The notes beneath the pieces are model-generated. The model saw nothing but the letters and a program-made list of their open reading frames with translations, did no database searches and was not told the DNA's origin. From contig JAAZNV010000009.1 of the NCBI GenBank assembly GCA_012798115.1, forward strand, positions 10,156-74,155: a stretch of DNA of 64,000 nucleotides, given 5' to 3'. Below, one piece after another: positions 1,324 through 50,080 of this stretch (position 1 is the first letter of the stretch; every line of letters starts with the position of its first letter). The stretch comes from a candidate division WWE3 bacterium (GTDB lineage: Bacteria; Patescibacteriota; WWE3; UBA101185; UBA10185). Position numbers and translations under genes: made by a program.

Positions 1324-1347
1324 CTATTCCTAAAACAGATTTGATGG

Positions 1348-2703: not shown

Positions 2704-2768
2704 AATTTATAATGATCTAAATATATTATATGCGTAAATCATTTTCAATTATAGAATAATATATACAT

Positions 2769-8017: not shown

Positions 8018-8815
8018 TTAAATACTAATATTTCCTCCAATAAGTGAGTTGATTATAACTCTCAATATTGCAGCTGACAACAAAACAAAAATTATACCAA
8101 TAATAGCAGCAGTAAGTTGTCCTTGAGCATCTTGTGTTTTTTTAGGATCTCCTTCACTAGTCATTAGCATATAACCAGATATAACAACATAGCAAAAGCC
8201 AATAAAAAGTGCACCATAATATAATATCCTTGCAACAGGTGATATTAATTCTTGCCAGTTGGTGATCTTTGGACCTTTATATGAATCATTCAGAGATGGA
8301 CCACAAGTATTTATATTACATGTCATACCTGTACAACAATCAGATGGCTTTTCACATGGTTCTCCATATTTAGCACAAAAGAGATCTACAATTTCCTTTT
8401 TACAGCAAACTTCATTACTACCACAATTTCCTATAGCAATCTCCTTACACTTACCAGTTGGAACACATTTATGGGTACATTCTGTAATTAAAGCCCAACA
8501 TTTATCTGCTGTGTTACTACAAGAATAGCTAACCTGTTTGTAAAGGCTACCTGGGCTAGTGGGTGAACAGGTATAGCCTTTATCTGTACACTCATTTCCT
8601 GTTGGCTTCACCTTGCAACAAACGTTATTCATAGAACACGCACCTAAAAGGATGTGCGTAGTAGGGCAAGTAACAGCACTATAACATGTTCCACCTTCAT
8701 CTTTACACTCCTGCGGAGTTGTTACTGATGCACCATAAGACTTAGTTGAGGACAGAAAAATTATGAACCCTAAGAGAAATGAAAATGTAAGACACTTTGA
8801 AAATCTAGTTTTCAT
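8018..8815 (-). CDS. Secreted cysteine-rich (knottin/defensin-like repeat) domain fused to a C-terminal VirB2/TrbC-like pilin module (paralog 4 of 4)
   Basis: Signal peptide MKTRFSKCLTFSFLLGFIIFLSSTKSYG|A. About 170 aa with more than 20 Cys arranged in repeated C..C..CC blocks. The C-terminus (two TM helices flanking SEGDPKKTQDAQGQLTAAIIG) is paralogous to the three preceding genes. Confidence 0.5.
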   Translation of the reverse strand: MKTRFSKCLTFSFLLGFIIFLSSTKSYGASVTTPQECKDEGGTCYSAVTCPTTHILLGACSMNNVCCKVKPTGNECTDKGYTCSPTSPGSLYKQVSYSCSNTADKCWALITECTHKCVPTGKCKEIAIGNCGSNEVCCKKEIVDLFCAKYGEPCEKPSDCCTGMTCNINTCGPSLNDSYKGPKITNWQELISPVARILYYGALFIGFCYVVISGYMLMTSEGDPKKTQDAQGQLTAAIIGIIFVLLSAAILRVIINSLIGGNISI

Positions 8816-24571: not shown

Positions 24572-25015
24572 TTATTCTATTCCTTTATCATCGTAGTACA
24601 TTCTTAAAATATAAGCAGCTGCTAAATGGTCGTTTGTCTTTCTATGCTTCTCTGAAATTCCTAAATCTAATGCTTCCTCAAACGCTCTTGCTGAAGACCC
24701 ATACTCATTTTGAGTCTCAACAGGCCTTTTTGTGTTGGTTTTTAATATTTTTGCAAATCTTCTTATTTCAATAGACTCTGCAGTATCTTTTCCTTCCATT
24801 GTCAATGGCAGACCTAGAATAATGAGCTCTACTTTATTCTCAATAACTACCCTGTTTATTCTTATAAGAGCGTTGTTAGTGTTTTTAGCTGAAATTACTT
24901 CTAAAGGAGTAACTAACCCATTTCTCCCAAGTGCCAAGCCAATATTTGCTCTACCATAATCCACTCCAAGTATAGTAGCAGAATCGTATTTAATCTTTTT
25001 ACTATTCATTATCAT
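24572..25015 (-). CDS. ruvX: Putative pre-16S rRNA nuclease / Holliday-junction resolvase-like YqgF
   Basis: ILGVDYGRANIGLALG...ELIILGLP...AAAYILRMYYD; RuvX/YqgF blocks. Overlaps the upstream gene by 4 nt. Confidence 0.75.
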   Translation of the reverse strand: MIMNSKKIKYDSATILGVDYGRANIGLALGRNGLVTPLEVISAKNTNNALIRINRVVIENKVELIILGLPLTMEGKDTAESIEIRRFAKILKTNTKRPVETQNEYGSSARAFEEALDLGISEKHRKTNDHLAAAYILRMYYDDKGIE

Positions 25016-26565
25016 TCCTTCTCTATAGTAATTTGTATTCTGCTTATATCTTTGGGTATGTTTCTAAAAAATGGCACTGCTGGACTAAGACGAAACTCAT
25101 ATGAGTTAACGTTCTTAATTGATCCTAATAGACTCTGTGCTTCTGCTGCAGATTTTCCTCTAAGTTGGTTTTTAATATCTTCCTCATTAATATTAGGAAC
25201 AATAAAAGTTTTAAGAGTAACTTGAATGTCTGCTTCTTGTGAAGTTAAAACACTACTGGTAGAGCTTCCAAGTACCTCTACTTTAACTTCTCTGTCTTGT
25301 TCTGATAGTGCAAACCCTTCTGGTATTACATCTTTAACATATTCATCTATAAACTTATTTAGTTCACTTTCCATGTATGCTAAACCCTCTCCACTTACAG
25401 TTTGGGTGAGAGATATTTTTTCTGCTTCATCCCCAATATTTTTGGTAAAACTATCTTTAATTATTTGAACTTGAGTTGAGCCTGCAACTAGCTTTTGTCC
25501 AATACCCAACTTACTCTTGATGTCCTCCTCAGCCTTTTTTGTACTAACCAGTTTCAGCTCAGTAGATATATTGTTTCTATCATCTGATGTAACTATTTTT
25601 ACTTCCTCACTCTTTCCACCATCTATATCACTTTTGGTCTTTGCAGCAAGTTCACTCTTTTTATATCCAGAAACTTCAAGTGATTTTCCATCATCTATAT
25701 TAAAAGATTCCCCAACACTAGAAGCAATGATGTCCACAGTTGCTTCTCCTGCAATATTGACCTCAGGATTAGAAGAATTTTCTGTGCTAGCTGGAATATC
25801 AACATCGTCTTTAAGATAATAATTCAAGTCTGTTGATTTTCCTTCGTAAACAACCTTATCTCCTTTATCAAGACTTATTTCTTTGGATGTTTTATTGTAC
25901 AAGGTTATCTCTCCTTCAGCCTTTTCCCCAACTGTTTTTGTGCCAGTAGTATCCTTTTCTAAGGTTGACTCTATATTCGTTGCTATAGTAGTTCCTCTAA
26001 GAACCTTGTTTTGTACGCTTGTTGAAGCACTATTTTTAACTTTTATAGTTACACTTTTTGTTAATGCTTGTGAGTGAACAGATATTTTTACACTTGCTTT
26101 TGGGGCCTTTAAACCATAGAAAATGAAACTAGCAAGTAAAGTAAGTAATATAAGAACTGGAGTGAGCACCTTCTTCTTTCCACTTGTTAGTTTTCTTATA
26201 AAATTTAGCGGTGCAATATTAATCTTTTTAGATTTGAAAATATTCATGGGAAGAGTGATCACTTTTTGTTTTGATTGCTTTGCTGTAGCTTCTATTAATG
26301 TCTGGTCTTCTTCTATGTATGGTTGTTCGGGACCTCCTCCTATAACTGACGAAAGGAGGCTATTTCCTATTTCATCATCAGTTGCAAAATCAATACTTTT
26401 TTCCATCTTATCAGCTTCATACTGAATAAGCTTAATATTTAATGAGTTTTCAAATAAGACAGATTCTTTTGGGATGTTTACCTCGATATTTAAATCAGTA
26501 ATGCTTTTTATCTTGCTTATTGCGGTAACAACATCATCGTTGGGTTGTAAATATAGTTTAATCAT
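25012..26565 (-). CDS. Bitopic membrane protein: ~125-aa cytoplasmic N-domain, one TM, ~370-aa Ser/Thr/Lys/Glu-rich beta-rich extracytoplasmic domain; unknown function
   Basis: TM VLTPVLILLTLLASFIFYGL. No family recognised. Last-but-one gene of an operon with the actin-like and FtsK/HerA-like ATPase genes. Confidence 0.4.
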   Translation of the reverse strand: MIKLYLQPNDDVVTAISKIKSITDLNIEVNIPKESVLFENSLNIKLIQYEADKMEKSIDFATDDEIGNSLLSSVIGGGPEQPYIEEDQTLIEATAKQSKQKVITLPMNIFKSKKINIAPLNFIRKLTSGKKKVLTPVLILLTLLASFIFYGLKAPKASVKISVHSQALTKSVTIKVKNSASTSVQNKVLRGTTIATNIESTLEKDTTGTKTVGEKAEGEITLYNKTSKEISLDKGDKVVYEGKSTDLNYYLKDDVDIPASTENSSNPEVNIAGEATVDIIASSVGESFNIDDGKSLEVSGYKKSELAAKTKSDIDGGKSEEVKIVTSDDRNNISTELKLVSTKKAEEDIKSKLGIGQKLVAGSTQVQIIKDSFTKNIGDEAEKISLTQTVSGEGLAYMESELNKFIDEYVKDVIPEGFALSEQDREVKVEVLGSSTSSVLTSQEADIQVTLKTFIVPNINEEDIKNQLRGKSAAEAQSLLGSIKNVNSYEFRLSPAVPFFRNIPKDISRIQITIEKE

Positions 26566-26574
26566 ATATTTTAA

Positions 26575-27777
26575 CTAAATTCCTAGTATCTCCTTATAAA
26601 TAATAGACGCAGCTACTGTATACAACCAATCAGAACTTAATAACTCTCCTGTGGCATAAGATACTTTTGATAAATCAGATAAGGATAATTTGGCTATCTC
26701 TAGACTAGCTTTAAATGGAATTGTTTTAGTCCATGGTTCTTCTTTTAGAGCGTTTTCAATATCTGGTATTTCAGCTCCACATCCGGATAGAAATATTTTG
26801 TTTGAAAACATTTTTATTCCAGAAAAATCTTCAAATAGCAACTTAATTCCATCAATCCACAAGCTTGTTATTCCTTTCAAGCATTTCTCGACGGTTATCC
26901 TCTCACTTTCTGAAAGTTTTTCTTGGTTGTACATATTTAATACATTTTCAGCATCTTTTGGTGATAAACCCATGTTTAACCCCACTGCTTCTATGAAGTG
27001 TGTATGTCCAATATTTAGGGTTTTAGATGAAACTATGCCACCACCAAATACAACTCCTACATCAGTTGAGTCTTCTGCAATACTAATTAAGACAAAATCT
27101 AGAATGTTTTTTGGAGGGTTTTTAAACCATTCAACAACTGAATACATCTGAGATCCTAATGCAATTAATTCAAGGCCTGATTTTTTAATTATTCCTTGAA
27201 TGGATTTAACGTGAAAACTTGGAGCAAAAGAATTGTACACTGCAGCTTCAATTGTCTCCCCACGCTGGCCCTCAAGTATTGCTACATTTTGATTATCTAT
27301 TTTTAAATAAATGTCAGACGTTGTTATTGAATCTAGTTCTAAATCTGGATCTCCAGTGTTCTGAAGAACTTTGTTATGTGCTTGAATATATGAAGCTTCT
27401 GTAATTCTGGAGTAAAGTTCTTCCACCTCATCAGCCTTAATAGGATCTGTTGTTGCTCTTTTTAGTCTTACCGTTGTAGTAAGTCCTAGTGTAATTCCGC
27501 CATCAATAGCAATTATTGTTTTTCTTGTTTTATCCTCTAAATTTTCTGTTGCTTTACTAACAACCTCTTTTATTGCTTCGCTAACCCCTTCTTTATTAAT
27601 AACCATTCCATTCCTTACGTAACCTTTCTCTAGGTTCTTTTTTCCTGACCCAATTATTTTAAATAAATCCCCATCGAAAAAGAATGCAACACATCTAACA
27701 TCCTTAGCATTTACATTCAAAGATAAGAACTTATTTGTGTTGGTATCTACTTTTTCTAAAAAAGGCAGATTAAACAT
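26575..27777 (-). CDS. Actin-fold ATPase of the FtsA/PilM family
   Basis: N-terminal glycine-rich phosphate loop region and a GHTHFIEAVGLNMGLSPKDAENVL block resembling the FtsA/PilM GG...AE..K motif; 400 aa. No ftsZ nearby. Confidence 0.5.
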   Translation of the reverse strand: MFNLPFLEKVDTNTNKFLSLNVNAKDVRCVAFFFDGDLFKIIGSGKKNLEKGYVRNGMVINKEGVSEAIKEVVSKATENLEDKTRKTIIAIDGGITLGLTTTVRLKRATTDPIKADEVEELYSRITEASYIQAHNKVLQNTGDPDLELDSITTSDIYLKIDNQNVAILEGQRGETIEAAVYNSFAPSFHVKSIQGIIKKSGLELIALGSQMYSVVEWFKNPPKNILDFVLISIAEDSTDVGVVFGGGIVSSKTLNIGHTHFIEAVGLNMGLSPKDAENVLNMYNQEKLSESERITVEKCLKGITSLWIDGIKLLFEDFSGIKMFSNKIFLSGCGAEIPDIENALKEEPWTKTIPFKASLEIAKLSLSDLSKVSYATGELLSSDWLYTVAASIIYKEILGI

Positions 27778-27801: not shown

Positions 27802-30210
27802 TTAAAACGGAAAGTTTGTTCGGTTTATGCTTGGTTCTTCTTGTGAGGCAGGTTCTTCTGAAAGTCTTCTGTTAATGAACTCTTCAACTTCTTGAACAGG
27901 AGTTCCATATTTTATTCTTGATAATTCTCTAATCTCGTCTGCTACCCTAGGATCTTTTTTGACAGAAGATAGGTCATTCCAATCTATCCATAAAGAAAAG
28001 GGTGGGGAAGGCTGCCCTCTTACTAAAAGCCTCATATAAGCATTTCCTGTTGGAAGATTGCTTAAATCTTGTTTTGTAAATGTTGGTGCAAACTGAGGTT
28101 CTAAAAATTCTGCATCTTCTACACCGACTCTAAAAGAACATATTGTTCCAACGTTTCCAAACACAGCTTCTTTTATATCTTCTTCAAGTTGTTGAATAAA
28201 CTGATGTGCTACAGTCAAATTAAGCTTGTATTTTCTAGCTTCTGAAAGGATAGTAGCAAAATCAGGTGTGGCAAAATTTTGAAACTCATCTACATACAAG
28301 AAGAAATTAGGAAAATCTCCATGAAGCTTGTGTCTTCTTAACGCTGATGCAAGTATTCTTGGGACGAACAATAATCCGATAAAGTTGGAGTTTTCTTCAC
28401 CAATTTTCCCTTTTGCAAGGTCCACCAAAAGTATTTTCTTCTCAGCCATTATTTGGTCAAAGTTGAATGAGGATTTAGGTTGTCCAATTATATTTCTCAT
28501 AGTTTTATCTGTTGTAATTCTGTCGAATTTAGACACAAAGTATCCCATTGTTTCGCCTTTCCTACTTGCTGTTGTTTTAGCCATCTCATCTGTCCAGTAT
28601 CTTCTAACAAGAGGATCAGTTAGCTTGTCTAAAAATTTCTTGGAGTAGCTCTCGTCAATAAATAATCTCAAAACATCTATCATTGTTGCTTCTGGATCAA
28701 CCATTGCAGTAAGCATCACATTTCTAATTGATCTCTCAAGAAGAGGGCCCATTATTCCTTGCTTGTTTGGATCATATAGTTTGTAGAGTAGGGCAATAAA
28801 TGCATTTATTATCATATTTTTTTCTTCATCAGTTTGAGCTTCAAGTAAGTTGAGTCCTAAAGGCCTTTCCGTATCTGCAGCATCAAACAAAATGACATCC
28901 TCTTTCCTTTCTGGGGGTATTTTTTGAAGTAGCTCGTCAATGTCTGTTCCATGGGGGTCAATAATTGCAACCCCTTCTCCTCTTTTAATATCTTGGAGTG
29001 CGCACCACATTAAGAATTGAGACTTTCCAGATCCTGTTTGTCCAACTATATACATATGTCTTGTTCTATCTTCGTCAAGCATATGAATTTCCTTTTCCAC
29101 TCCTCTAAATATACTTTTCCCTAAGAAGATTCCTTCATCTGGTAGCTCTACTGGAGCAGAGGATTTTCTAGCGATAAGCCACAAAATATTGGGTGTACCA
29201 ATGTCTTTGTTTGGAAAATGAAATACTGTAGCCATTTCTATATTGTTTAATACAGAAACGTTTGAGTATAACTGTATGCTAAGCATTGGAATGTTTATGT
29301 TTTTAATTCTTAATCTTCTGTATATGAAATCATTTACGTATTTTTTGGGGGATATTAAGAATCTTCTTACAAATCTGTTGTATGAAACATCTGTAAACTG
29401 TTCAAATGCCCCTACCATATTATGCATTTGAGAATCTGCAGTCATCTTATCACTTGCAACTGATACTATTCTTATTTTTATATAAAACCCTGGATTGGAT
29501 ATCTTGTTCTCAACTCCTTCAAGAAACTTTTCATCTATATTTATCTTCTTGTCTGGATTTGCTGCTTTTGCTCTAACATTAGATATAAATCTTCTACCTG
29601 CCATTCTCCAATCATCATCTGCAGGTTGGATTACGTACTGAACAGCAGTTACTTGATCCACCCTCATTTTACTCATAGCTGATGTTATAGGGCTTAAAGA
29701 ATCACTCTTTAAATCTTCATATTGTTTTATTGGATAGAAAGCAGGTCCTTTGAGCTTTAACTCTGTAATTCTAGTAAATTTTCCTCTATCCCATACTTCA
29801 TGTGGTTTTACTATATCTACTTGAGCAGCAGGGTACGCTGCATTTATTTGTTTTTCCACAAGAGATGCAATTTCATCAGGTGTTACGACGTAAAAAGCTA
29901 TTCCTTCTGCCTTAGAAACTATTTCAAAGGATATTCTATATTGCCCTGTAAATAATGCTTTCCAAAAACCTTTTTTAAACCCAATGAGGCTAGAAAACAT
30001 ATGTTCTGCGGCTTTTATTTCTATCTCATTGTCATTAGGTAAAAGAACTTGAAAAAACGTTAAGTTATATTGTGTTTGTTTCTCCTTTCTTTTCCTAAGC
30101 CATGAAGCAACTCCTAGAGTGATAAATGTCAATAAAAACACAGAAACTATCAAGTAAATAGAAATCCAAAATGTATTGTATAAAGTGTTATTTACTTCCA
30201 TGGGCAGCAA
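27802..30210 (-). CDS. FtsK/HerA-superfamily P-loop ATPase of the T4SS VirB4/VirD4 (TraC/TraG) type, N-terminal TM anchor
   Basis: One N-terminal TM. Walker A HMYIVGQTGSGKSQ followed by GEGVAIIDPHG. Walker B FLYVDEFQNF then SEARKYKLNLTVAHQ, matching the VirB4/VirD4 pattern DEF...aRKyg..l.l.tQ. Confidence 0.6.
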   Translation of the reverse strand: MLPMEVNNTLYNTFWISIYLIVSVFLLTFITLGVASWLRKRKEKQTQYNLTFFQVLLPNDNEIEIKAAEHMFSSLIGFKKGFWKALFTGQYRISFEIVSKAEGIAFYVVTPDEIASLVEKQINAAYPAAQVDIVKPHEVWDRGKFTRITELKLKGPAFYPIKQYEDLKSDSLSPITSAMSKMRVDQVTAVQYVIQPADDDWRMAGRRFISNVRAKAANPDKKINIDEKFLEGVENKISNPGFYIKIRIVSVASDKMTADSQMHNMVGAFEQFTDVSYNRFVRRFLISPKKYVNDFIYRRLRIKNINIPMLSIQLYSNVSVLNNIEMATVFHFPNKDIGTPNILWLIARKSSAPVELPDEGIFLGKSIFRGVEKEIHMLDEDRTRHMYIVGQTGSGKSQFLMWCALQDIKRGEGVAIIDPHGTDIDELLQKIPPERKEDVILFDAADTERPLGLNLLEAQTDEEKNMIINAFIALLYKLYDPNKQGIMGPLLERSIRNVMLTAMVDPEATMIDVLRLFIDESYSKKFLDKLTDPLVRRYWTDEMAKTTASRKGETMGYFVSKFDRITTDKTMRNIIGQPKSSFNFDQIMAEKKILLVDLAKGKIGEENSNFIGLLFVPRILASALRRHKLHGDFPNFFLYVDEFQNFATPDFATILSEARKYKLNLTVAHQFIQQLEEDIKEAVFGNVGTICSFRVGVEDAEFLEPQFAPTFTKQDLSNLPTGNAYMRLLVRGQPSPPFSLWIDWNDLSSVKKDPRVADEIRELSRIKYGTPVQEVEEFINRRLSEEPASQEEPSINRTNFPF

Positions 30211-40977: not shown

Positions 40978-41397
40978 TTAAATGTTTGTAGATACCGCAA
41001 ACTTTTCCAGTGCATTTTTGAGAGACATCCACACGTTGTTCTTGCCATCATAGAACGTGAGGAACAAATGTGGGAACTGCTTGACATACCAGTTTAGATC
41101 CTCTTCTGAAGTCGCTTCTCCCACCCACATTGCGTTCTTATGAGATCTTAGTTCTTTCTCTGACTGGAAGCCGTAAACTGAAACGAAAGGTCTGTTATCC
41201 AATCCACTTTTGAACAGCCTTTCGTCTTGTCTGTTTGTGGCAGGAAGACGAGGGCCAAAATAGTATCTTCCACATTTTTCGCATGGATAAGCACATGAAT
41301 ATGAGGAACATCCTGTTTGGAGGACTACGCGATCCTCACTAGAAGGATTTACATATCCATCACACCCAGGCATTTTACATACAAATTTCTCACTCAT
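40978..41397 (-). CDS. Cys-rich (zinc-ribbon-like N-terminus) hypothetical protein
   Basis: CKMPGCDG...CSSYSCAYPCEKCG cluster in the first 45 aa. Confidence 0.35.
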   Translation of the reverse strand: MSEKFVCKMPGCDGYVNPSSEDRVVLQTGCSSYSCAYPCEKCGRYYFGPRLPATNRQDERLFKSGLDNRPFVSVYGFQSEKELRSHKNAMWVGEATSEEDLNWYVKQFPHLFLTFYDGKNNVWMSLKNALEKFAVSTNI

Positions 41398-41497
41398 TTT
41401 CTCTCCTTTAGATGTTTTTGTTCTGATGATTGTACCTTACCTTGGCAACGTTGTCAAACACTACAGGTTCTTGGAGTAATAGTTAAATAATACATAT

Positions 41498-42211
41498 TTA
41501 TTCTAAAAGAGAAGCTTTGACTAGTAATCTTTTTGTTTTTGTTCCTGCTGGCCAACAGGTCATTAAGCTGACCGTTGATTCATTTAAGTACCCTGGTTTC
41601 CAGTTTTCAAGTGGGTTTACTTGGTTTGGATAAAATACCTCTTTTTCCTCAACCTTGTAGCTTAAGTCCTTATTGTTGTACTTGATAGTGAACATATCTC
41701 CTGCTTCTAAATCTCCAAGGGTAGAAAATATTGTTTTATAGTTTCTTGGGTTATAAAACCATGGGAGAACAGAATGACCATATATGAAAGAATTGCCTTT
41801 TTCACCAGGAAGACTTGATCCTTTATAGTGTCCTAAAAATTCTTCTGGACTTGAACCTGTAAAATCTGTTTTAACTTTTGCGTTTTCTATTTTCAGCTTA
41901 GGTATGGAAAGAAAAAAGAATTCAGGGACGTTTTGTTCTTCTGCTTCTATATTTTTGTTATCTTTTAACTCTGAGAAGCTAAAGTCCTTGAATCCTGTAG
42001 CTACACCAAGAACTGTAGACTCCATTGGTTTGGACACTTTATCTTGTGTTTTAAATGATACAAGTGGAAGAATAACTTGAGTTCCAAGTACAAAAAACCC
42101 AAGGGCCATAAGTGCCCCAGACAATATCCTTGCTTTAAAGAGGAATGGAAAATTTACAGACTTGTAAATTGGATCAAAGGATTCATTTTTAATATATACT
42201 TTTTTAGGCAT
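41498..42211 (-). CDS. Sortase-family transpeptidase, N-terminally membrane-anchored
   Basis: N-terminal TM, catalytic His region FIYGHSV and catalytic Cys motif LMTCWP (sortase TLxTC). 237 aa. Confidence 0.65.
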   Translation of the reverse strand: MPKKVYIKNESFDPIYKSVNFPFLFKARILSGALMALGFFVLGTQVILPLVSFKTQDKVSKPMESTVLGVATGFKDFSFSELKDNKNIEAEEQNVPEFFFLSIPKLKIENAKVKTDFTGSSPEEFLGHYKGSSLPGEKGNSFIYGHSVLPWFYNPRNYKTIFSTLGDLEAGDMFTIKYNNKDLSYKVEEKEVFYPNQVNPLENWKPGYLNESTVSLMTCWPAGTKTKRLLVKASLLE

Positions 42212-42213
42212 TG

Positions 42214-42915
42214 TTAAGAGTTTAACACTGTTTCTATAGCCATTGGAATTATCAATTCTTCATCTATTTCACTAAGTTTTGATCTCATATCTATTTTTCT
42301 GAATTCCTCAAATATACTTACTAATTGTTTAGTTGTATAAAGATTAGCTTGGGATAAAGACTTCCTTTTAACAAAGTCATGTAGTTTAACAAATGAAGGG
42401 GATCCGAACTTTGCTGAAGCAATTGATCTTAATCCATAAAAAAACAAAGAAAATATTTCATATGGGGAGATTTGATCAGATATTAACTTTGAAAGTTCAT
42501 TGTATGCATTTTCTCTTTGTTTATAAAATACAAAGTCCACAAGTTTAAATGTACTACTGGTAGGGATAGCGTCATTTAGATTTGTTTTTGCCTTCAGTTT
42601 TGCTGCATTTTTGATGAAAGCATTTGTTTTAGGAAGGGACTTTGCAGACAAAATTATTAATGTCGTAGATAAAGGTAGCTTAGTTATTACTTCAATAAAC
42701 TTATCCATATTCATTCTTCCTGCTGAAGTTATGTCAATAACAATAAAAGGTGGGTTTCCAAATAAGTCGCTAGAATGACCTTTCTCATACAAATCTTCTG
42801 GTGTTATATCACTAATATTTACTTCTATCCTAGATTCAATGTTTAGTTTCTTTTGTTGATTTTGAATTAATGCCCTTGATTTAGGAAGATCATCCCCATG
42901 AACTATGTAAATCAT
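42214..42915 (-). CDS. holA: DNA polymerase III delta subunit-like (compact)
   Basis: N-terminus MIYIVHGDDLPKSRALIQ... resembles the delta N-terminal domain (..lyGeD..l). Reduced length of 233 aa. Confidence 0.4.
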   Translation of the reverse strand: MIYIVHGDDLPKSRALIQNQQKKLNIESRIEVNISDITPEDLYEKGHSSDLFGNPPFIVIDITSAGRMNMDKFIEVITKLPLSTTLIILSAKSLPKTNAFIKNAAKLKAKTNLNDAIPTSSTFKLVDFVFYKQRENAYNELSKLISDQISPYEIFSLFFYGLRSIASAKFGSPSFVKLHDFVKRKSLSQANLYTTKQLVSIFEEFRKIDMRSKLSEIDEELIIPMAIETVLNS

Positions 42916-42950
42916 ATTTTTATTTTAACTTATAACTTGAAATTGAATAG

Positions 42951-44060
42951 CTACTTATCACCAAACAAATATTTTTGGACATAAGCATGTATTTGAGAAA
43001 AATCTCCAGTTTGGGGAATGAGAACGTAAGCACCACCATAAAGTGTTGAATCTACAGGGTGATACAAAAGTCCACCGCTGTTAGCATCACTTCTATCATC
43101 TAATACGATAGATTCTATCTTACTAAGATCTAGTTTTTGAGATAGCATGTAAAAGTTTTCCAGCGTCTGAAAATCAATATTTGTGTCTACGTTTTGTGCA
43201 TAGGCATCATACAGTCCTTTTATCTTTGCAGGACTGAGAACAGTTTCAAGAGAAAAAATCTTATCTTTTATTGCAGAAATGACTTTTTGTTGTCTTTTTG
43301 CTCTTGCAAAATCCGTATTCTCATCATTATCTCCATGCCTAGATCTAGCGTACTTTAAAGCTGTCTTACCATCCATCTTTTGCAGTCCAGATTTAAACTC
43401 AACGCGTTCAAATCTGCAAGGAAAGTCATATTCACTTATCTTGTCTCCAAGTTTTTTTATCTCTTCTTCATTCTTTCCACAAGTATCATTTTCCTTTCCT
43501 TCTATTGGGTAAAAGTTATCGACAAAAGCATTTTCCACATTAACTTCAATGCCATTTAAGACTTCTATTGCTTGTTCAAATAAGTTAAACGTTACAAGTA
43601 TGTGGTAGTGTATTGGTATTCCCATCACTTTTTCTATTTGTTCTTTTAAACCATCTATTCCTTTGTAGGCATAAACTGCGTTTATCTTTGTTTGATAGTC
43701 ACTAACCCATAAATCTCTAGGCAAGGAAATTAATACCACATCGTTTTCTGTTGTTCCTATTGATGCAACAAGAATAGTGTCCGTTAATGTAGCCCTTCCT
43801 TGTTCTGCTCCTACATCTCTTTTGTCTGATCCAAGGACAAGTATATTTATTCTCCCATCTGTTTCTTTAAGGTTTGCAGCTGCTACATTTGAAACAATAG
43901 ATATTGGATTGAATGTTTGTTTAATTCTGCCTCTAAAAACATATAAGGAGGCACCTATTACACAAAGTACAACTAAAAGCAGGATAAACTTTACTAATCC
44001 TTTATTGTTTACCTCTTTTCTTAAGATACTTTTTTGTTTGTATATGTCTGTATAGTTCAT
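42951..44060 (-). CDS. LytR-CpsA-Psr (LCP) family cell-wall polymer phosphotransferase
   Basis: N-terminal TM; NILVLGSDKRD...GRATLTDTILVASIG LCP core motif. Confidence 0.8.
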   Translation of the reverse strand: MNYTDIYKQKSILRKEVNNKGLVKFILLLVVLCVIGASLYVFRGRIKQTFNPISIVSNVAAANLKETDGRINILVLGSDKRDVGAEQGRATLTDTILVASIGTTENDVVLISLPRDLWVSDYQTKINAVYAYKGIDGLKEQIEKVMGIPIHYHILVTFNLFEQAIEVLNGIEVNVENAFVDNFYPIEGKENDTCGKNEEEIKKLGDKISEYDFPCRFERVEFKSGLQKMDGKTALKYARSRHGDNDENTDFARAKRQQKVISAIKDKIFSLETVLSPAKIKGLYDAYAQNVDTNIDFQTLENFYMLSQKLDLSKIESIVLDDRSDANSGGLLYHPVDSTLYGGAYVLIPQTGDFSQIHAYVQKYLFGDK

Positions 44061-44068
44061 GGTTGATT

Positions 44069-44734
44069 TTAGTTATAAGTCCTAATTATATCTGCAAAAG
44101 TTTTAGGATCAAGACTTGCATTTCCAACTAAAACTCCATTCAAGTTAGTTATTTTGGCTATATGCTCAATATTATTTTCATTCACAGACCCCCCATATAT
44201 TAGTGGGGTATTGCTTGAGATTATCTTTCTAATCTCATTAACTATAAGCACTATCTTGCTTGGATCCTCTGCATTATAAACACCATTTTTTGATATATTA
44301 ACAGGATTTTCCCATGCCATTATTACACCTTCTTTGTGTAGCCTTACTAAATCTTCTGGGTTGGTAAAACAAATGATAGGAGTTATCTTTTCTTTCAAGC
44401 ATATGTCTCTTTTTGCTACTACTACGTTTACTTCTTCTTTTCTTTCACTATGTCCTATAATTGCATATTTGCAGAACTCCTTAACTTGAAATGCACCTGT
44501 TTCTCCAGTGTTTGCACCTTTTTCTTTTAAGGATATATCTTGTGCAGCTACCTTTAACATACTCTTCTTTGAGAGTTCATAAATTACTGGGATAAAAGGA
44601 AAGGATGGTGCAATTATTATTTCATTCTCCGGAGATAAGAATTTAAGAAATCCAGAGAAGCCATCAACCCAAGATATGGTATCTTCAAACCCCATGTTTT
44701 CTTTCCAATTTGCAACTATGTATTTATTTATCAT
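44069..44734 (-). CDS. tpiA: Triosephosphate isomerase
   Basis: ...NTGETGAFQVKEFCKYAIIGHSERK...; TIM active-site His/Glu context. Confidence 0.85.
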   Translation of the reverse strand: MINKYIVANWKENMGFEDTISWVDGFSGFLKFLSPENEIIIAPSFPFIPVIYELSKKSMLKVAAQDISLKEKGANTGETGAFQVKEFCKYAIIGHSERKEEVNVVVAKRDICLKEKITPIICFTNPEDLVRLHKEGVIMAWENPVNISKNGVYNAEDPSKIVLIVNEIRKIISSNTPLIYGGSVNENNIEHIAKITNLNGVLVGNASLDPKTFADIIRTYN

Positions 44735-44735
44735 C

Positions 44736-45581
44736 TTAAGATATCCTTCTAATAGTTTCTTCTATCAACTTTGGCAGGTTCTCTATATCTTCATGTGTAT
44801 AACTGTATCCTAATGTATTTAAACACGAAAAAACTACTCCTATGTCCGTATATATTTTATCCGCAAATTGGCAAGCAACAAGACTGTTAATCAAGACGTT
44901 TCCACCAATTTCCCCGATTTTTGATTTGCCACAACCCATTGGACAGTTTGAACATGATGGGTATATTCCCATATCTACACGAAGTTCGTCCTTCTTGGAA
45001 AGAATCTCGTTATATAGCTTTTCATATTCATCAAAGTTTAATGGTTTGTCAATTTCCGTTCCTGTAATAACTACTCCTTTGATGTTTTTTTCGGTAAATA
45101 TTTTTTCAAGAAAGCTTTCTGGGGTAGTGAAGTAATCATCAAGAAGTATCTTATTGTTCTCAAAGTTTATAGCACTTCTTTTCCCAGGAAGTCCTAGTGA
45201 GTCTGTACTTGTTTCTTCTCCAAGGAAGTCTACTTTAGCATTACATATGTCTAGTACAGTTGGTTGATCTGACCTCCCAAATATTGCTATAGCATCTACT
45301 CCTGCAAACCTCATTCTTAACGATAAGCTTCCACCTATGTATATGTCTTCTATTACACCACCATCATTTAAAACTACTGCAGTCTTTGACGCAAAGGGAA
45401 AAAAGCCATTTAGTGGCCCAATAGCAAGCACGACAGGGTTTAAGTCTGAGTACATCTCGTGAAGTTTTATTCCAAGAGCAACACCACCTAGGTATTTGTT
45501 AAGATCTGCAAAGCTTTTTAAATCAGCTTCCTTCTTATTTAAGTCTATTGTTAGTACCTTTTTAGCTAAAAAATCTATCAT
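44736..45581 (-). CDS. Truncated aldehyde:ferredoxin oxidoreductase (AOR)-family protein: AOR N-terminal domain plus Cys cluster, lacking most of the tungstopterin-binding domains
   Basis: LTIDLNKKEADLKSFADLNKYLGGVALGIKL, VVLAIGPLNG and MRFAGVDAIAIFGRSDQPTVLDI align with the AOR_N blocks. YPSCSNCPMGCGK resembles the AOR [4Fe-4S]-ligand region. 281 aa against ~600 aa for AOR/GAPOR. Confidence 0.5.
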   Translation of the reverse strand: MIDFLAKKVLTIDLNKKEADLKSFADLNKYLGGVALGIKLHEMYSDLNPVVLAIGPLNGFFPFASKTAVVLNDGGVIEDIYIGGSLSLRMRFAGVDAIAIFGRSDQPTVLDICNAKVDFLGEETSTDSLGLPGKRSAINFENNKILLDDYFTTPESFLEKIFTEKNIKGVVITGTEIDKPLNFDEYEKLYNEILSKKDELRVDMGIYPSCSNCPMGCGKSKIGEIGGNVLINSLVACQFADKIYTDIGVVFSCLNTLGYSYTHEDIENLPKLIEETIRRIS

Positions 45582-45853
45582 TCTTCGTTTTTTCCTTCTA
45601 TTTCTTCGTGGTTTTCTACCTCAAACACATCTTTAGGACATATCTTTGATATTTTTTCTACATGAAGCATGTTTATTCTAGGATCTATCTCTATTTGCAT
45701 TTCTAACTTTTGGTTATCATCTCTTTTCTTTTTGAATATTCTGATTAAAGCTTCTTCAAGCCCCACCTTTTTTAACTGTCTTTGTGATTCTAGCAAACAC
45801 AATTCACATCCGTTGCATTTATCTGTTTGTGTTGGTTTTAATATCTTAGCCAT
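45578..45853 (-). CDS. Small ferredoxin-like protein (split CxxCxxC...CP 4Fe-4S motif)
   Basis: CNGCELC near the N-terminus and a distal KICPKD motif; 91 aa. Translationally coupled (4-nt overlap) to the AOR-like gene. Confidence 0.4.
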   Translation of the reverse strand: MAKILKPTQTDKCNGCELCLLESQRQLKKVGLEEALIRIFKKKRDDNQKLEMQIEIDPRINMLHVEKISKICPKDVFEVENHEEIEGKNEE

Positions 45854-45857
45854 ATCT

Positions 45858-46832
45858 TTATGATTCTAGGGCTTTTATTCCTGGCAAGGTATCCTCAGCA
45901 AGGTATTGAAGCATAGCACCTCCACCTGTGGATACAAAGCTAAACTTATTTAGTATTCCTAGTTTGTCTACTGCAGCGATAGTATCGCCGCCGCCTATGA
46001 CAGAAAATACACCTTTTTCTTGAGTCAGTTTAACAGTTTCATTAGCTATTTCCTTTGTACCTGTTATATATTCTTCTTTTTCATACATTCCAAGAGGTCC
46101 TGCCCAAAGTATTGTTTTTGCACTGTTAATTATTTGTTTAAATTTTTCTATTGTTTTTGTATCTATATCTTTAGATTCTACACTACTGTTATCTGATAAA
46201 ACTAAGTTCTGAGGTATTTCTTTACTCCAATTTGCAGAAAGTATTGAGTTTAAAAGTACGTAATCTGCTTTTTGGATAAATTTATCTATCACCGGGAGTT
46301 TACTCTCAAGTTTTATACCGCCAATTATTACAATTAATGGCTTGTCTGGGTTTGTAGTTACTTTGTTTAGTGTTTCAATCTCCTTTTGAAATCTAAATCC
46401 TACGTAAGAAGGTAAATACCTTGTTATTCCAACAATAGAAGTATGTTCTCTATGTGATGTTGCAAAGCTTTCATTTACATATATATCTGCCTTTGAAGCA
46501 AGTTCTTTTGCGAAGTTAGTGTCATTTTGTTCTTCTCTTGAGTCGAATCTTAAGTTCTCCAGTATTTCATATCTACTTTCTCCTATTTTTTCATTAAAGT
46601 ATGGAATTAAATGCTTAGTGCTTAACTCTTCTTTGAATACGCCTTCTGGCTTTCCAATGTGGCCTGCAATTAAAGGAATTCCACCTTTTTCTATGATGAA
46701 TTTAAGTGTAGGAAGAAGGTTATCTAGTCTGTATGTTTCTCTAATAACATTATTTTCTATTGGTACATCAATATCACATCTTACAAATACCTTTGTTCCT
46801 TGTTTGATAGGAGCATCAATTAAAGACTGCAT
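45858..46832 (-). CDS. pgk: Phosphoglycerate kinase (compact)
   Basis: Hinge and ATP-binding blocks (...GGGDTIAAVDKLG..., GGGAML). 324 aa. Confidence 0.9.
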   Translation of the reverse strand: MQSLIDAPIKQGTKVFVRCDIDVPIENNVIRETYRLDNLLPTLKFIIEKGGIPLIAGHIGKPEGVFKEELSTKHLIPYFNEKIGESRYEILENLRFDSREEQNDTNFAKELASKADIYVNESFATSHREHTSIVGITRYLPSYVGFRFQKEIETLNKVTTNPDKPLIVIIGGIKLESKLPVIDKFIQKADYVLLNSILSANWSKEIPQNLVLSDNSSVESKDIDTKTIEKFKQIINSAKTILWAGPLGMYEKEEYITGTKEIANETVKLTQEKGVFSVIGGGDTIAAVDKLGILNKFSFVSTGGGAMLQYLAEDTLPGIKALES

Positions 46833-46916
46833 GAAGATATTCTAGCATTTATTGGTTTGACTTTATAAATTCTTAATAGTATAACCAAGAAAAATATTAG
46901 AAAGGGAGATGTTGTC

Positions 46917-47570
46917 ATGAGTAAGAAGACGGGTAATGCTGTCCAAGACGACAAGCTAACGAACGAGGAGCTTGGTGCTTTATATCGCAGGGTTTTGGAA
47001 ATTAGTCGCCGCTTGAACGACGGAACTATTAAGTATACTTCTGTGATGGGGGGTCTTCAGGAAATTATTGAGGGTCAAGGGGCAGAGGATCGGTCAGTCT
47101 GGAACTGGAAGACTATTGAGATCGGAACTTACAAGGATATGGAGTCCCTGCGCAAAGCTCTGGAAGAAGCAGGTGCTGCTATTAGGGGTCAGGCAAGTGA
47201 TGTTCTCAACAGGGTATATTTAAGTAAATCCAAACAGTCCTTGGATCTGGTGGTTTTGTCCGTCAAAGAGCTGGGATTTTCTCAAAGAGCCCAACTAGAA
47301 AGCATCCACAAAATCGGTGACGTACAGGGTTTGGGCAAGCCTCCAGCTGAAGCAGCTCCGCAGTACCTATTGGAGCACGGTAATAACCTAAAACCTGGAG
47401 AGGTTCTAATCTTTGCAATGGAACCTATTATAGACTCCTTTTGCGATCTGCGCCTGTTCTTCGTCAAGCGCTTTGGCGATGTTCTTAGTCTCGGCGCGTT
47501 CCGCGTTCGCCCTGATGACTTCTGGGATGTTGACGATCGCTTCGTGTTCGTTCGTGTTCGTTGCAAGTAG
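46917..47570 (+). CDS. Compositionally foreign (GC-rich, ~48% GC) gene of unknown function inserted between gap and pgk on the opposite strand
   Basis: GC content is visibly higher than the flanks (~33%). The 3' end contains a GTTCGT hexamer repeat; no motif recognised. Followed by a hairpin terminator. The 47282..47629 minus-strand ORF is an Arg-rich mirror artefact. Confidence 0.45.
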   Translation: MSKKTGNAVQDDKLTNEELGALYRRVLEISRRLNDGTIKYTSVMGGLQEIIEGQGAEDRSVWNWKTIEIGTYKDMESLRKALEEAGAAIRGQASDVLNRVYLSKSKQSLDLVVLSVKELGFSQRAQLESIHKIGDVQGLGKPPAEAAPQYLLEHGNNLKPGEVLIFAMEPIIDSFCDLRLFFVKRFGDVLSLGAFRVRPDDFWDVDDRFVFVRVRCK

Positions 47571-47578
47571 GTTCTTTG

Positions 47579-47620
47579 AACTCCGTGTTTTTGGATTTTT
47601 CTATACCAAAGCACGGAGTT
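47579..47620 (+). terminator. Hairpin terminator after the GC-rich gene, abutting the gap stop codon
   Basis: AACTCCGTG...CACGGAGTT (9-bp outer stem with an inner TTTGG/CCAAA pairing) followed by TTTTATT. Confidence 0.5.
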
Positions 47621-47621
47621 T

Positions 47622-48698
47622 TTATTCACTCATCATTATTGCCATATCAACAAGTCTATTACTGTATCCCCATTCATTGTCATACCAAGCAAATATCTTA
47701 ACTAAATTCTTATCTATAACCTTAGTCATAGACAAATCTACTACTGCAGAGTAGGGGTTTCCAATAATATCTGAAGATACAATAGGTTCATAAGTAACTT
47801 GGATAACATCCTTGTAAATTGAATTTTTAGAAGCTTCTTCAAATGCTTTATTTACTTCATCTTCAGTAACATTCTTTTCAACCAAAGCTGTAATATCAGA
47901 TAAAGACCCTGTAACAATTGGAACTCTAAGAGATACACCATCAAATTTTCCCTTAAGATTTGGCAATGCTTCTGTTGTTGCGTCTGCAGCACCAGTAGTT
48001 GTAGGTATTATATTGTAACCAGATGACCTAGCCCTTCTTAAATCTACCTTTTCTCCAGATGGTGGAGTATCCACAACACTCTGATTATTTGTTATTGCAT
48101 GAATAGTACTCATTCCAGCTTTAATAATCTTGAAATTCTTGTCAAGAATAGCTAGCACTGGAGAAATACAGTTCGTTGTACAAGAAGCATTTGAGATAGC
48201 ATTTTGACCTAAATACTGTGAATCATTAACCCCTTTCATAAATGTTTGAATAGTTCCACCTTTTGTTGGAGCAGACACTATTACTTTCTTAGCTCCTGCC
48301 TTTATATGTTCCAATGCACTGTCATCTTTAGTAAATCTTCCTGTGCATTCCAAAACAATATCAATATTTAGCTTTTTCCATGGTAATTTGCTTGGTTCTT
48401 TTTCTGAAGTTACTAAAGTTCTTTTTCCGTCTACAATAAGATAATTTTCATTTCCCTTAATATCAAAAAACTCCTTTTCTCCCTTATTGTCTTCCAGTCT
48501 TGTCTTTTTACCATCTTCTTCTATGTATATTTCCTTGTTGTAAACTCCATAAACCGTGTCATATTTTAAAAGGTGAGCTAAGACTCGAGGATTAGTTAAA
48601 TCATTGATAGCAGCAATGCTTAATCCTTTTTCAAGAGCAATCTTGAAAGAAGATCTCCCTATTCTTCCAAATCCATTTATTGCAAGCTGGGCAGTCAT
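47622..48698 (-). CDS. gap: Glyceraldehyde-3-phosphate dehydrogenase (type I)
   Basis: INGFGRIGR N-terminus and the active-site context ASCTTNC. Confidence 0.9.
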   Translation of the reverse strand: MTAQLAINGFGRIGRSSFKIALEKGLSIAAINDLTNPRVLAHLLKYDTVYGVYNKEIYIEEDGKKTRLEDNKGEKEFFDIKGNENYLIVDGKRTLVTSEKEPSKLPWKKLNIDIVLECTGRFTKDDSALEHIKAGAKKVIVSAPTKGGTIQTFMKGVNDSQYLGQNAISNASCTTNCISPVLAILDKNFKIIKAGMSTIHAITNNQSVVDTPPSGEKVDLRRARSSGYNIIPTTTGAADATTEALPNLKGKFDGVSLRVPIVTGSLSDITALVEKNVTEDEVNKAFEEASKNSIYKDVIQVTYEPIVSSDIIGNPYSAVVDLSMTKVIDKNLVKIFAWYDNEWGYSNRLVDMAIMMSE

Positions 48699-48719
48699 AT
48701 TTTAATTCTACAACATTAA

Positions 48720-48986
48720 CTAATTTAAAAGTGAATTCAACCAAGTTTTTAACATCTCTTTAGGCATTGCACCTGTTCTTCTATCTATTTCTTTATCATC
48801 TTTCAAGGCTACAAATGTTGGAATGCTCATAATATTAAACTTTGATGCTAGATCTGATTCTGCTTCTACATCAGATTTCTGGAATTGTATCTTTCCTTGG
48901 TAATCACCTTCAATTTCTTCAAATATTGGGGCCATTATCTTGCACGGTCCACACCAATCTGCATAAAAATCTATTAATTTAATCAT
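48720..48986 (-). CDS. trxA: Thioredoxin (minimal, 88 aa)
   Basis: WCGPC active site. Confidence 0.85.
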   Translation of the reverse strand: MIKLIDFYADWCGPCKIMAPIFEEIEGDYQGKIQFQKSDVEAESDLASKFNIMSIPTFVALKDDKEIDRRTGAMPKEMLKTWLNSLLN

Positions 48987-49066
48987 TTCAAATCTCCTAA
49001 GATGAAAATATATTTACTAAATAAAACTGCTGGGATCTATGATAACATAATCTTTGTTTACTCACT

Positions 49067-50080
49067 ATGAAAAATATTTCAAGAAGAAAATATACTCTTT
49101 TTCTATTGATTTTAATGCTTCTTATAACCGTCTTTATTTTTGGGGAAGGACTTTTTAAGAAAGTATTTAAAGATGAGTTTCTTGTTAAAGAAGATTTAAC
49201 AGAAAAAAATTATTATTCTACGCTTTTAATCAACACATTAAGTGATTCCGGAAGCTCACCTGATTTTAGTATCCTCCAGTCTAATTGGAATCCTGGAGAA
49301 GAGTATGGTACGTCCAATCAGCCTGAGATATCAGGAGAAAGTGGCATAGTTGTAGACATAAATTCTGGGAGGATTCTTTATGAGAAAAATTCTACACAAA
49401 GGTTAAAAATTGCAAGTTTAACTAAAATTATGACTGCTGTAGTTGCTTTAGAACATAAGAATATTAATGATGAGATTGTTGTTTCCTTAAAAGCTTCATC
49501 TATTGGAGAAAATGTTATGGGTATATCAGAAAGTGAAGTATACACACTAGAAGAACTTCTTTATGGGCTGATTTTAAATTCTGGAAATGATGCTGCATAT
49601 GCAATTGCAGAAGGAGTTGCTGGGAACTCCGACACATTTGTTAAGTGGATGAATATGAAAGCAAAGGAATTGAATTTAAATGATACGTATTTTACTGACC
49701 CTTGTGGTTTAAACGATGAAACTTATTCCACTTCAGTAGATTTAGTTAAGTTATCTAGGTATGCAATGCAAAAAGAAGAGTTTAGGAAGATAGTAAGTAC
49801 GGTTAGTATGGAGCTTCCTTATTCTGAAAAACATAAATATATTTATTTGGAAAACCAAACTAATCTTTTAACTACATATCCTGGAGTTGCAGGAATAAAA
49901 ACAGGGTATACAGAAGAAGCAGGGTATTGTTTAGTTTCTTATACAAAGAATAATAACATTGAGCTAATTGGAGCAGTCTTAAATAGTGAAAATAGGAAGT
50001 TTGATATGATTTTTATGCTCGATCACAGTTATTCCACATTGGGAGTTGTAATCGAGCATCCTTTACTTCAATTTTATTAA
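49067..50080 (+). CDS. D-alanyl-D-alanine carboxypeptidase (serine-type, PBP5/6-like)
   Basis: N-terminal TM, SxxK motif (ASLTK), SGN motif (LNSGND) and a KTG motif (IKTGYT). Confidence 0.8.
   Translation: MKNISRRKYTLFLLILMLLITVFIFGEGLFKKVFKDEFLVKEDLTEKNYYSTLLINTLSDSGSSPDFSILQSNWNPGEEYGTSNQPEISGESGIVVDINSGRILYEKNSTQRLKIASLTKIMTAVVALEHKNINDEIVVSLKASSIGENVMGISESEVYTLEELLYGLILNSGNDAAYAIAEGVAGNSDTFVKWMNMKAKELNLNDTYFTDPCGLNDETYSTSVDLVKLSRYAMQKEEFRKIVSTVSMELPYSEKHKYIYLENQTNLLTTYPGVAGIKTGYTEEAGYCLVSYTKNNNIELIGAVLNSENRKFDMIFMLDHSYSTLGVVIEHPLLQFY
49995..50079 (+). repeat. 85-bp perfect direct repeat, copy 1 (3' end of the carboxypeptidase gene)
   Basis: GGAAGTTTGATATGATTTTTATGCTCGATCACAGTTATTCCACATTGGGAGTTGTAATCGAGCATCCTTTACTTCAATTTTATTA, identical to 50615-50699. 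Confidence 0.85.

Follow-up and report, generated by a model that had tools for sequence, protein, structure and literature searches.

A miniature AOR-family protein and its ferredoxin-like partner form a conserved two-gene module in the gap-pgk-tpiA block of WWE3 bacteria

Why should a bacterium of candidate division WWE3 carry, between two genes of lower glycolysis, what looks like half of an aldehyde:ferredoxin oxidoreductase (AOR)? The question is raised by a stretch of 64,000 nucleotides (hereafter the window) from assembly GCA_012798115.1 (contig JAAZNV010000009.1, positions 10,156 to 74,155 of the forward strand), in which genes for a protein of 281 amino acids (aa) and for a smaller one of 91 aa lie between pgk and tpiA. 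The original prediction, made from the letters alone, took the larger protein for a miniaturised AOR relative and the smaller for a ferredoxin-like protein, and read their position as a hint of either a relic or a new ferredoxin-linked redox function on glyceraldehyde 3-phosphate (GAP) or aldehydes. From our analysis, the 281-aa protein is very probably a mini-AOR, that is, a complete AOR domain 1 joined to a stitched piece of about 80 aa from domains 2/3, reduced in place from a gene for an AOR-like protein of about 545 aa. The mini-AOR and its partner are a conserved, translationally coupled two-gene module under purifying selection. The explanation that we favour as a whole, comprising the mini-AOR module, its reductive origin and a putative role as an electron relay, has in our estimate a probability of about 0.5.

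The Pfam family AFOR_N (PF02730) matched residues 8-120 of the 281-aa protein at 67.4 bits (cut-off 29.8, E 1.8e-18), and AFOR_C (PF01314) reached 10.4 bits, below its cut-off of 27. A profile of 35 homologues compared with the PDB matched AOR-family chains only, in three collinear pieces (residues 9-123 to AOR 11-137, 162-202 to 198-239, and 207-220 to 304-317, the last being the CxxCxxxC loop). When the mini-AOR alignment (A1) was compared with the long homologue P0217 by hhalign, residues 4-197 aligned to 3-226 with 99.5% probability (E 2e-22), which indicates that domain 1 is complete although the Pfam model covers just its first part. The AlphaFold2 model (predicted local distance difference test, pLDDT, 77.7; predicted template-modelling score, pTM, 0.83) has the strand pattern of AOR domain 1 in residues 1-190, mostly at pLDDT 82-98 with one block at 68, and is confident up to residue 195. 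Foldseek searches of the PDB matched nine chains, all of the AOR family, over about 230 aligned columns (E 6e-14 to 1e-11, TMq ∼0.59); 1aor led the list (E 6e-14, TMq 0.59), and no non-AOR structure reached E 1e-3. The AOR N-terminal domain claimed in the original prediction is thereby borne out. A PHROG search gave no matches for the mini-AOR or the 91-aa protein.

The part that follows domain 1 was traced with a hidden Markov model (HMM) of residues 203-281, which in pairwise tests matched two collinear segments of long AORs, at about 265-300 and 444-530, with up to 35 bits. The matched segments are the CxxCPxGC loop and the xSLxxC...LG(Y/W)x(Y/F)T(H/T)ED stretch; they stand about 170-190 aa apart in long forms versus about 10 aa in the mini-AOR, in which the remnant ends in the LGYxYTHED helix region. 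Alignment to long AORs places deletions of about 50 aa before the CxxC motif, about 170-190 aa after it and about 45 aa at the C-terminus. The mini-AOR is some 270-320 aa shorter than AORs of 545-605 aa, in keeping with the roughly 300 aa of tungstopterin domains that were first noted as missing. The fold of residues 203-281 is putative only, as it comes from a low-confidence part of the model.

What was kept in this remnant is the motif C210-S-N-C213-P-M-G-C217-G (codons 44931-44954), the iron-sulfur (Fe-S) ligand motif of CxxCPxGCG type that the first reading of the letters had picked out, and a fourth ligand candidate, C237, within an (N/H/D)SLVAC motif (codon 44871-44873). Scanning one genome per species gave 64 loci, nearly all labelled WWE3 and including the complete genome RAAC2_WWE3_1, and all four cysteines were present in 64/64 mini-AORs; they align with C288, C291, C295 and C494 of the Pyrococcus furiosus AOR (PfAOR). 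This pattern suggests that the mini-AOR binds one [4Fe-4S] cluster. A fifth cysteine, C253 (codon 44823-44825), is present in 62/64 mini-AORs and in neither long forms nor canonical AORs; it aligns with a Leu in a PfAOR helix (residue 510 by our count), at a position that is likely buried.

The fate of the cofactor site was followed in a PfAOR frame (residues 4-581) rebuilt from HMMER alignments, in which the residue numbers used for 1AOR in the literature fell on the expected residues (R76, N93, R182, A183, C288, C291, C295, E313, D338, D343, H448, K450, D489, and C494). These residues reportedly contact the pterin or its phosphate or sit next to tungsten. By alignment, the mini-AOR has lost the segments holding E313, D338, D343, H448, and K450, together with both tungstopterin-binding lobes, and has F in place of R182, K in place of R76 and a variable residue (N/H/D/R) where PfAOR has D489. 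Judged from its sequence, it cannot bind tungsto-bispterin in the known way. The most conserved residues of domain 1 are S65, K66 (the PfAOR R76 position), Y81, G83-G84 and the G130-x-x-G133 loop, and the matching PfAOR loops are said to face the pterin phosphates and the cluster. The scanned ORFs (open reading frames) of the window included no moa, moe or tup genes, and the description of the complete WWE3 genome mentions neither molybdenum nor tungsten (Kantor et al., 2013, PMC3812714).

The nearest relatives that are not miniature were proteins from Patescibacteria, about 540-578 aa long, in which AFOR_N and AFOR_C both occur; a member labelled WWE3 was present in at least one of their clusters. 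In three loci (L073, L074, and L005) such a protein of 545 aa stands in the string trx-gap-...-pgk-79-aa CxxCxxC..CP gene-AOR-like gene-lytR-holA. There is no tpiA between the AOR-like gene and lytR in L004, L005, L006, L073, and L074, and in L004 and L006 the locus is without pgk as well. Within the long Cys-containing family (P0217, P0322-P0362), H448 is replaced by Thr, R182 by Phe and D338 by Tyr or Trp in 41/41 members, and K450 by Glu or Asp, while the cluster cysteines are kept in 39-40 of the 41; H448 and R182 are kept in 11/11 canonical comparators. Two substitutions, R182 to F and R76 to K, are common to mini and long forms. A third state occurs in the same slot, namely proteins of about 550 aa (P0211, P0215, and P0220; L004 6001-7653, L006 6001-7653) that lack all four cluster cysteines, with a small upstream partner that keeps its own CxxCxxC...CP. 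In these Cys-less forms the same ancestral enzyme was degraded by another route. In a neighbour-joining tree of domain 1, a simple method giving moderate support, the mini forms were monophyletic (70/100 bootstraps) and sister to the long Cys-containing group, the Cys-less group came next, and a canonical-looking clade of 585-605 aa lay outside. The closest canonical relative, P0218, a member of that outer clade, keeps E313, H448, and R182, is followed by a MoaD/ThiS-like gene rather than a ferredoxin-like one and stands in an unrelated context.

Since the long form in the same slot is already without H448 and R182, the mini form is best seen as the end of a reductive series that ran in place. 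The most economical reading is a history of three steps. An AOR with a small Fe-S partner would first have occupied the block; the pterin site of that AOR would then have decayed; and finally some lineages would have lost the cluster, while the WWE3 lineage of the window would have lost the useless pterin lobes by several internal deletions, leaving exactly domain 1 and the cluster ligands.

The same observations bear on whether the pair could still be catalytic, as a ferredoxin-linked GAP or aldehyde oxidoreductase that works without pterin or with a cofactor subunit supplied in trans. Descent from the AOR family, retention of a ferredoxin-like partner, very strong purifying selection and a location exactly at the node of GAP, dihydroxyacetone phosphate and 1,3-bisphosphoglycerate speak for such an activity. 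Yet domains 2/3 with both pterins are deleted, the catalytic and pterin residues were already gone from the long precursor family in 41/41 members, and all four cysteines are taken up as predicted cluster ligands, which leaves no evident open iron site. The organism has a normal GAPDH and PGK, and no MoaD-like gene lies nearby, unlike in P0218. We consider this reading very unlikely, and with it the GAP or aldehyde redox function originally suggested, given the replacement of R182, D338, H448, and K450 in all 41 long homologues. The link to the archaeal enzyme GAPOR fell away too, as the NCBIfam model GAPOR_Arch (NF040818) scored 13 bits against a cut-off of 1300 and the long relatives, at 18-34 bits, came no closer. 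An AOR split into two genes, with domains 2/3 encoded elsewhere, was also rejected: the search with the long form's domains 2/3, which depends on shared words and did not scan whole WWE3 genomes, found 44 proteins, all of them full-length and two-domain except fragments on contigs under 1.7 kb, and thus no stand-alone AFOR_C.

The conservation of the pair was estimated at several depths. A large protein database held 394 homologues of the mini-AOR, and the best 120 of these were all 279-309 aa long, 54-100% identical and named WWE3 or Patescibacteria. An exhaustive profile search of 1.84 billion cluster representatives gave 42 clusters at E < 1e-30, mostly full-length minis of 270-300 aa with some shorter fragments, and its next tier consisted of AORs of 540-600 aa. 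In the window, 4 nt separate the pgk stop from the start of the 91-aa gene, the stop of the latter and the start of the 281-aa gene overlap as ATGA, and 1 nt separates the 281-aa stop from the tpiA start; the coupled, same-strand arrangement between pgk and tpiA is as the original prediction described it, and the comparison with relatives that it had called for found the pair in all 64 WWE3 species loci. The order small Cys protein-mini-AOR-tpiA-lytR was seen in every one of these loci that extends far enough, with pgk directly upstream of the small gene in most and gap in about eight; the small gene and the mini-AOR are always adjacent and overlap in about 48 of 63 loci. The whole string trx-gap-(pgk)-fdx-AOR-like-(tpiA)-lytR-holA-sortase is conserved. 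The block is frozen in its gene order and includes trx, lytR, holA, and sortase besides the glycolytic genes; location on its own speaks only weakly for a glycolytic role.

Across 63 species, the mini-AOR had a median identity to the window protein of 53.8% and the small protein one of 52.8%; PGK stood at 53.4%, TPI at 46.6% and GAPDH at 62.3%. The ratio of nonsynonymous to synonymous substitution rates (dN/dS) against the closest relative (L007) came to 0.048 in the mini-AOR and 0.057 in the small protein, and the values of gap (0.089), pgk (0.097) and tpiA (0.135) were higher; these ratios are approximate, dS being high in this comparison. A non-functional remnant, pseudogene or mis-called ORF could be suspected from the half-normal length and the sub-threshold AFOR_C, but the homologues listed among the 394 are about 280 aa, the ORFs are intact in 64 species, dN/dS is low and the retained residues are precisely the cluster ligands. 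The chance of this is negligible, and a dead relic or artefact was ruled out by conservation and dN/dS. The word relic, as originally used, is apt for the evolutionary origin, with a homologue of about 545 aa in the same slot, and not for the present state of a gene that is conserved like PGK and shows no decay.

The small partner has the pattern C13-x2-C16-x2-C19 ... C72-P73 (codons 45797-45817 for CxxCxxC and 45635-45640 for C72-P73), with C13, C16, and C19 in 65/65 sequences and C72 and P73 in 64/65. Its homologues, of 70-99 aa, have an invariant CxGCxxC, an IDPR motif, a C-terminal CP and a conserved 13-residue insertion after the third Cys (E-x-Q-R-Q-L-K-K-V-G-L-E; QRQLKKVGLE), and the CxxCxxC...CP pattern recurs in the partners of long and Cys-less AOR-like forms. 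Fer4 was detected at E < 0.01 in just 2 of 19 homologues. The AlphaFold2 model reached pLDDT 80, and hhalign aligned the protein end to end with the single-cluster ferredoxin of Thermotoga maritima, cysteines in register, at 49% probability. A match to the known Fe-S subunits of AORs was also sought by sequence and by fold in the PDB and did not reach significance (E 0.5-8). By motif and topology we regard the protein as ferredoxin-like, not as a demonstrated ferredoxin; it is very divergent and putatively carries a single [4Fe-4S] cluster.

What, then, could the pair do? The catalytic cofactor pocket is lost and the Fe-S site is kept, which is indicative that the mini-AOR probably moves electrons rather than oxidising aldehydes. 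We tentatively propose a pterin-free, two-cluster electron-transfer or redox module, a proposal that we hold with somewhat less than even confidence. The mini-AOR would no longer oxidise aldehydes; the small protein would dock at its cluster face, as ferredoxins or Fe-S subunits do on AORs (e.g., AorAB, BamBC, and WOR5), to give a chain of two [4Fe-4S] clusters; and this chain would pass low-potential electrons to or from a putative further partner bound at the surface vacated by the pterin lobes. The module would be co-expressed with lower glycolysis in an organism that ferments through pyruvate:ferredoxin oxidoreductase (PFOR) and group 3b hydrogenase. Kantor et al. (2013, PMC3812714) reported PFOR, ADP-forming acetyl-CoA synthetase and group 3b hydrogenase for WWE3 and listed a single ferredoxin-type electron carrier, a 'ferredoxin oxidoreductase-like protein'. 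We also counted towards the ferredoxin link the group 3b hydrogenase operon that borders pgk in those mini-AOR loci that diverge most.

Several points weigh against this proposal. The Cys-less relatives kept domains 2/3 and the Cys-bearing partner and lost the AOR cluster, which means that the pair there cannot be a two-cluster chain; this is the strongest argument that what is conserved throughout the family may be something other than transfer from cluster to cluster. A block frozen with unrelated genes (lytR, holA, and sortase) says little about function. Cluster binding is deduced from motifs only, and in the mini-AOR these lie in a region (residues 210-241) that AlphaFold2 modelled with low confidence (pLDDT <50). 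The 91-aa protein stayed under every Pfam ferredoxin threshold (best 14.1 bits versus 21.1, E 0.04-0.15), and Foldseek gave its model no significant match, the best being NdhI at E 0.17; the non-significant top ranks were mostly Fe-S subunits (NdhI, AorA 8c0z_C, 9mqx_E, FwdG, and P. furiosus ferredoxin).

The persistence of the family without a cluster, as in the Cys-less long relatives, would sit more easily with a redox, iron or oxygen sensor or a scaffold pseudoenzyme, whose cluster is structural or sensory and which modulates flux. In detail, the mini-AOR, with or without its partner, would bind GAPDH, PGK, TPI, or a triose phosphate at the former pterin-phosphate site; the invariant position beside pgk or gap and tpiA in 64 species fits this, as does the concentration of the most conserved domain 1 residues in loops that reportedly face the pterin phosphates and cluster in PfAOR. 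On the other hand, Pfam and NCBIfam found no DNA-binding or known regulatory domain, the four cluster cysteines and the partner's four are near-invariant, more than a purely structural role usually demands, and the neighbourhood is a frozen block of several functions. On balance we think this, the main rival explanation, rather unlikely. Less likely still, in our estimate, is that the cluster has become exposed on its former cofactor side and serves a new ferredoxin-fed activity at the triose-phosphate node, possibly Fe-S chemistry on a triose phosphate or aldehyde, or a ferredoxin-driven redox switch on GAPDH, TPI, or thioredoxin. If true, a tungstoenzyme would here have given rise to a new class of enzyme or regulator that works without its cofactor.

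The presence of trx-gap within the conserved string, and of C253 in 62/64 mini-AORs and not in long forms, could also point to a pair resembling ferredoxin:thioredoxin reductase, in which electrons pass from the small ferredoxin through the mini-AOR cluster and C253 to the thioredoxin of the operon, for example to keep the catalytic cysteine of GAPDH reduced. This appears highly improbable: a single spare cysteine does not make a disulfide pair of CPC/CHC type, C253 takes a Leu position of the PfAOR helix and is probably buried, homology to the reductase and its CPC...CPC...CHC motifs are absent, and a TrxB-like flavoprotein gene occurs in at least one related locus.

The features of the locus are collected in Table 1. 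Pfam and NCBIfam confirmed the flanking genes as GAPDH, PGK and TPI, with the qualification that an antisense ORF separates gap from pgk. After tpiA, the minus strand of the window continues with a LytR-CpsA-Psr gene, holA and sortase.

Table 1. Features of the mini-AOR locus; positions are nucleotides of the window.
Feature	Position	Strand	Basis or remark
Thioredoxin (trx)	48720-48986	(-)	ORF and Pfam/NCBIfam; head of conserved gene string with gap
gap (GAPDH)	47622-48698	(-)	Pfam/NCBIfam
Antisense ORF, 217 aa	46917-47570	(+)	Between gap and pgk in the source genome
pgk, 324 aa	45858-46832	(-)	Pfam PGK 283 bits; NCBIfam
Ferredoxin-like protein gene, 91 aa	45578-45853	(-)	ORF; predicted single [4Fe-4S] carrier
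Mini-AOR gene, 281 aa	44736-45581	(-)	ORF, Pfam AFOR_N, Foldseek, homologues
AOR domain 1 (beta-sandwich), mini-AOR residues 1-197	44991-45581	(-)	Pfam, hhalign, AlphaFold2
Domains 2/3 remnant, mini-AOR residues 203-281	44739-44975	(-)	HMM to long AORs; cysteine conservation
tpiA (TPI), 221 aa	44069-44734	(-)	Pfam TIM 136 bits; NCBIfam

The antisense ORF has a GC content of 0.48, against 0.33-0.34 in its neighbours and the window, and no Pfam or NCBIfam match; its sole PHROG match was at E 0.006. A 55%-identical copy stands at the same place in the closest relative, L007, in which the flanking genes are about 84-92% identical, and a weak copy occurs in L045; it looks like a fast-evolving foreign insert. 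The distance from gap to pgk varies among WWE3 genomes, some having about 45 nt and others 400-2400 nt, and the longer gap-pgk or pgk-fdx spacers carry small opposite-strand ORFs without Pfam matches (L007, L009, L018, L028, L043, L052, L055, L060, L062, and the P0119 contig). These variable spacers point to an insertion hot spot within an otherwise frozen gene string. Typical bacterial PGK has about 390-400 aa; that of the window has just 324, a shortness (320-347 aa) conserved in relatives, and its Pfam match is split in two, a sign of internal deletions. In the most divergent mini-AOR lineages (L071 1-3656 and L072 1-3622), a four-gene cluster for a group 3b-type [NiFe] hydrogenase (Fer4_22, FAD/NAD/DHODB_Fe-S protein, Oxidored_q6, and NiFeSe_Hases) lies divergently beside pgk. 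A scan for promoters and terminators was uninformative, as the sites that it gave in 41000-49300 did not outnumber those in shuffled sequence or were fewer. Farther away, dnaA lies at 22012-23415 (-), which suggests that the window is probably near the chromosomal replication origin. Large ORFs of 422, 451, 1197, 615, 517, and 400 aa without a Pfam family at E <= 1e-5 (regions 55-6362, 11528-13375, and 25012-27777) occur near a pilin-like protein of type IV secretion systems (8018-8815) and a HerA/DUF87-like ATPase (27802-30210); they are typical dark matter of the candidate phyla radiation (CPR), possibly cell-surface or conjugation-like machinery.

Our literature search, which combined WWE3, CPR or Patescibacteria with AOR, tungsten or AFOR_N and had subscription journals outside its reach, found no description of the mini-AOR, its partner or the reductive series. 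Databases carry the mini-AOR as 'AFOR N-terminal domain-containing protein' or, misleadingly, as 'aldehyde:ferredoxin oxidoreductase', the label used for many of them by JGI, which would wrongly credit Patescibacteria with an aldehyde-oxidising or tungsten-dependent metabolism. The protein represents a natural minimal AOR core, in which domain 1 and the cluster cradle persist under strong selection without the tungstopterin lobes. Sister lineages preserve the intermediates, with active-site residues lost first and then either the cluster or the lobes; this makes the family a clean example of the dismantling of a complex metalloenzyme as genomes become reduced. As the carrier list for WWE3 has no stand-alone ferredoxin (Kantor et al., 2013, PMC3812714), the conserved pair may fill this gap as a low-potential carrier system. 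In essence, a metalloenzyme appears to have been stripped to a putative electron-transfer core and kept under strong selection.

Among known systems, the mini-AOR shares the fold (Foldseek E 1e-12 to 6e-14) and sequence of domain 1 with the tungsten AOR family (P. furiosus AOR 1AOR, FOR 1B25, WOR5 6X1O, BamB 4Z3W, and Clostridium autoethanogenum AOR 9G7J), as well as the CxxCxxxC...C cluster ligands in the same order. It differs in having 281 aa instead of 580-650 aa, nearly all of domains 2 and 3 being gone, and in lacking both DxxGL(C/D) pterin contexts, E313, H448, and K450. With archaeal GAPOR it has in common membership of the AOR family and an association with glycolysis but no specific similarity; GAPOR has about 650 aa with pterin, whereas the WWE3 organism has normal GAPDH and PGK. 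Since the mini-AOR lacks what defines a tungstopterin enzyme, it belongs neither among the aldehyde:ferredoxin oxidoreductases nor under GAPOR. The Patescibacteria AOR-like family of about 545 aa shares its slot and small partner with the mini-AOR but keeps AFOR_C, with H448T, D338Y/W and K450E/D, and the Cys-less variants (P0211, P0215, and P0220) lost the cluster instead of the lobes. Heteromeric AORs (AorAB(C) 8C0Z, BamBC 4Z3W, WOR5-L/S 6X1O, and bifurcating AOR 9MQX) offer the closest parallel to the pair in that an AOR-type gene stands beside a small ferredoxin-type gene, whose product presumably docks and would relay electrons from the AOR [4Fe-4S] cluster. Their Fe-S partners have three or four clusters in 150-180 aa, whereas the partner here has one cluster motif in 75-109 aa and its AOR subunit is pterin-less. 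The small protein itself resembles single-cluster [4Fe-4S] ferredoxins (T. maritima and P. furiosus type; Pfam Fer4_15) in its CxxCxxC...CP spacing and in a similar predicted order of secondary structure, and is set apart from them by the 13-residue insertion, sub-threshold Pfam scores and its being always encoded with an AOR-like gene, usually in overlap.

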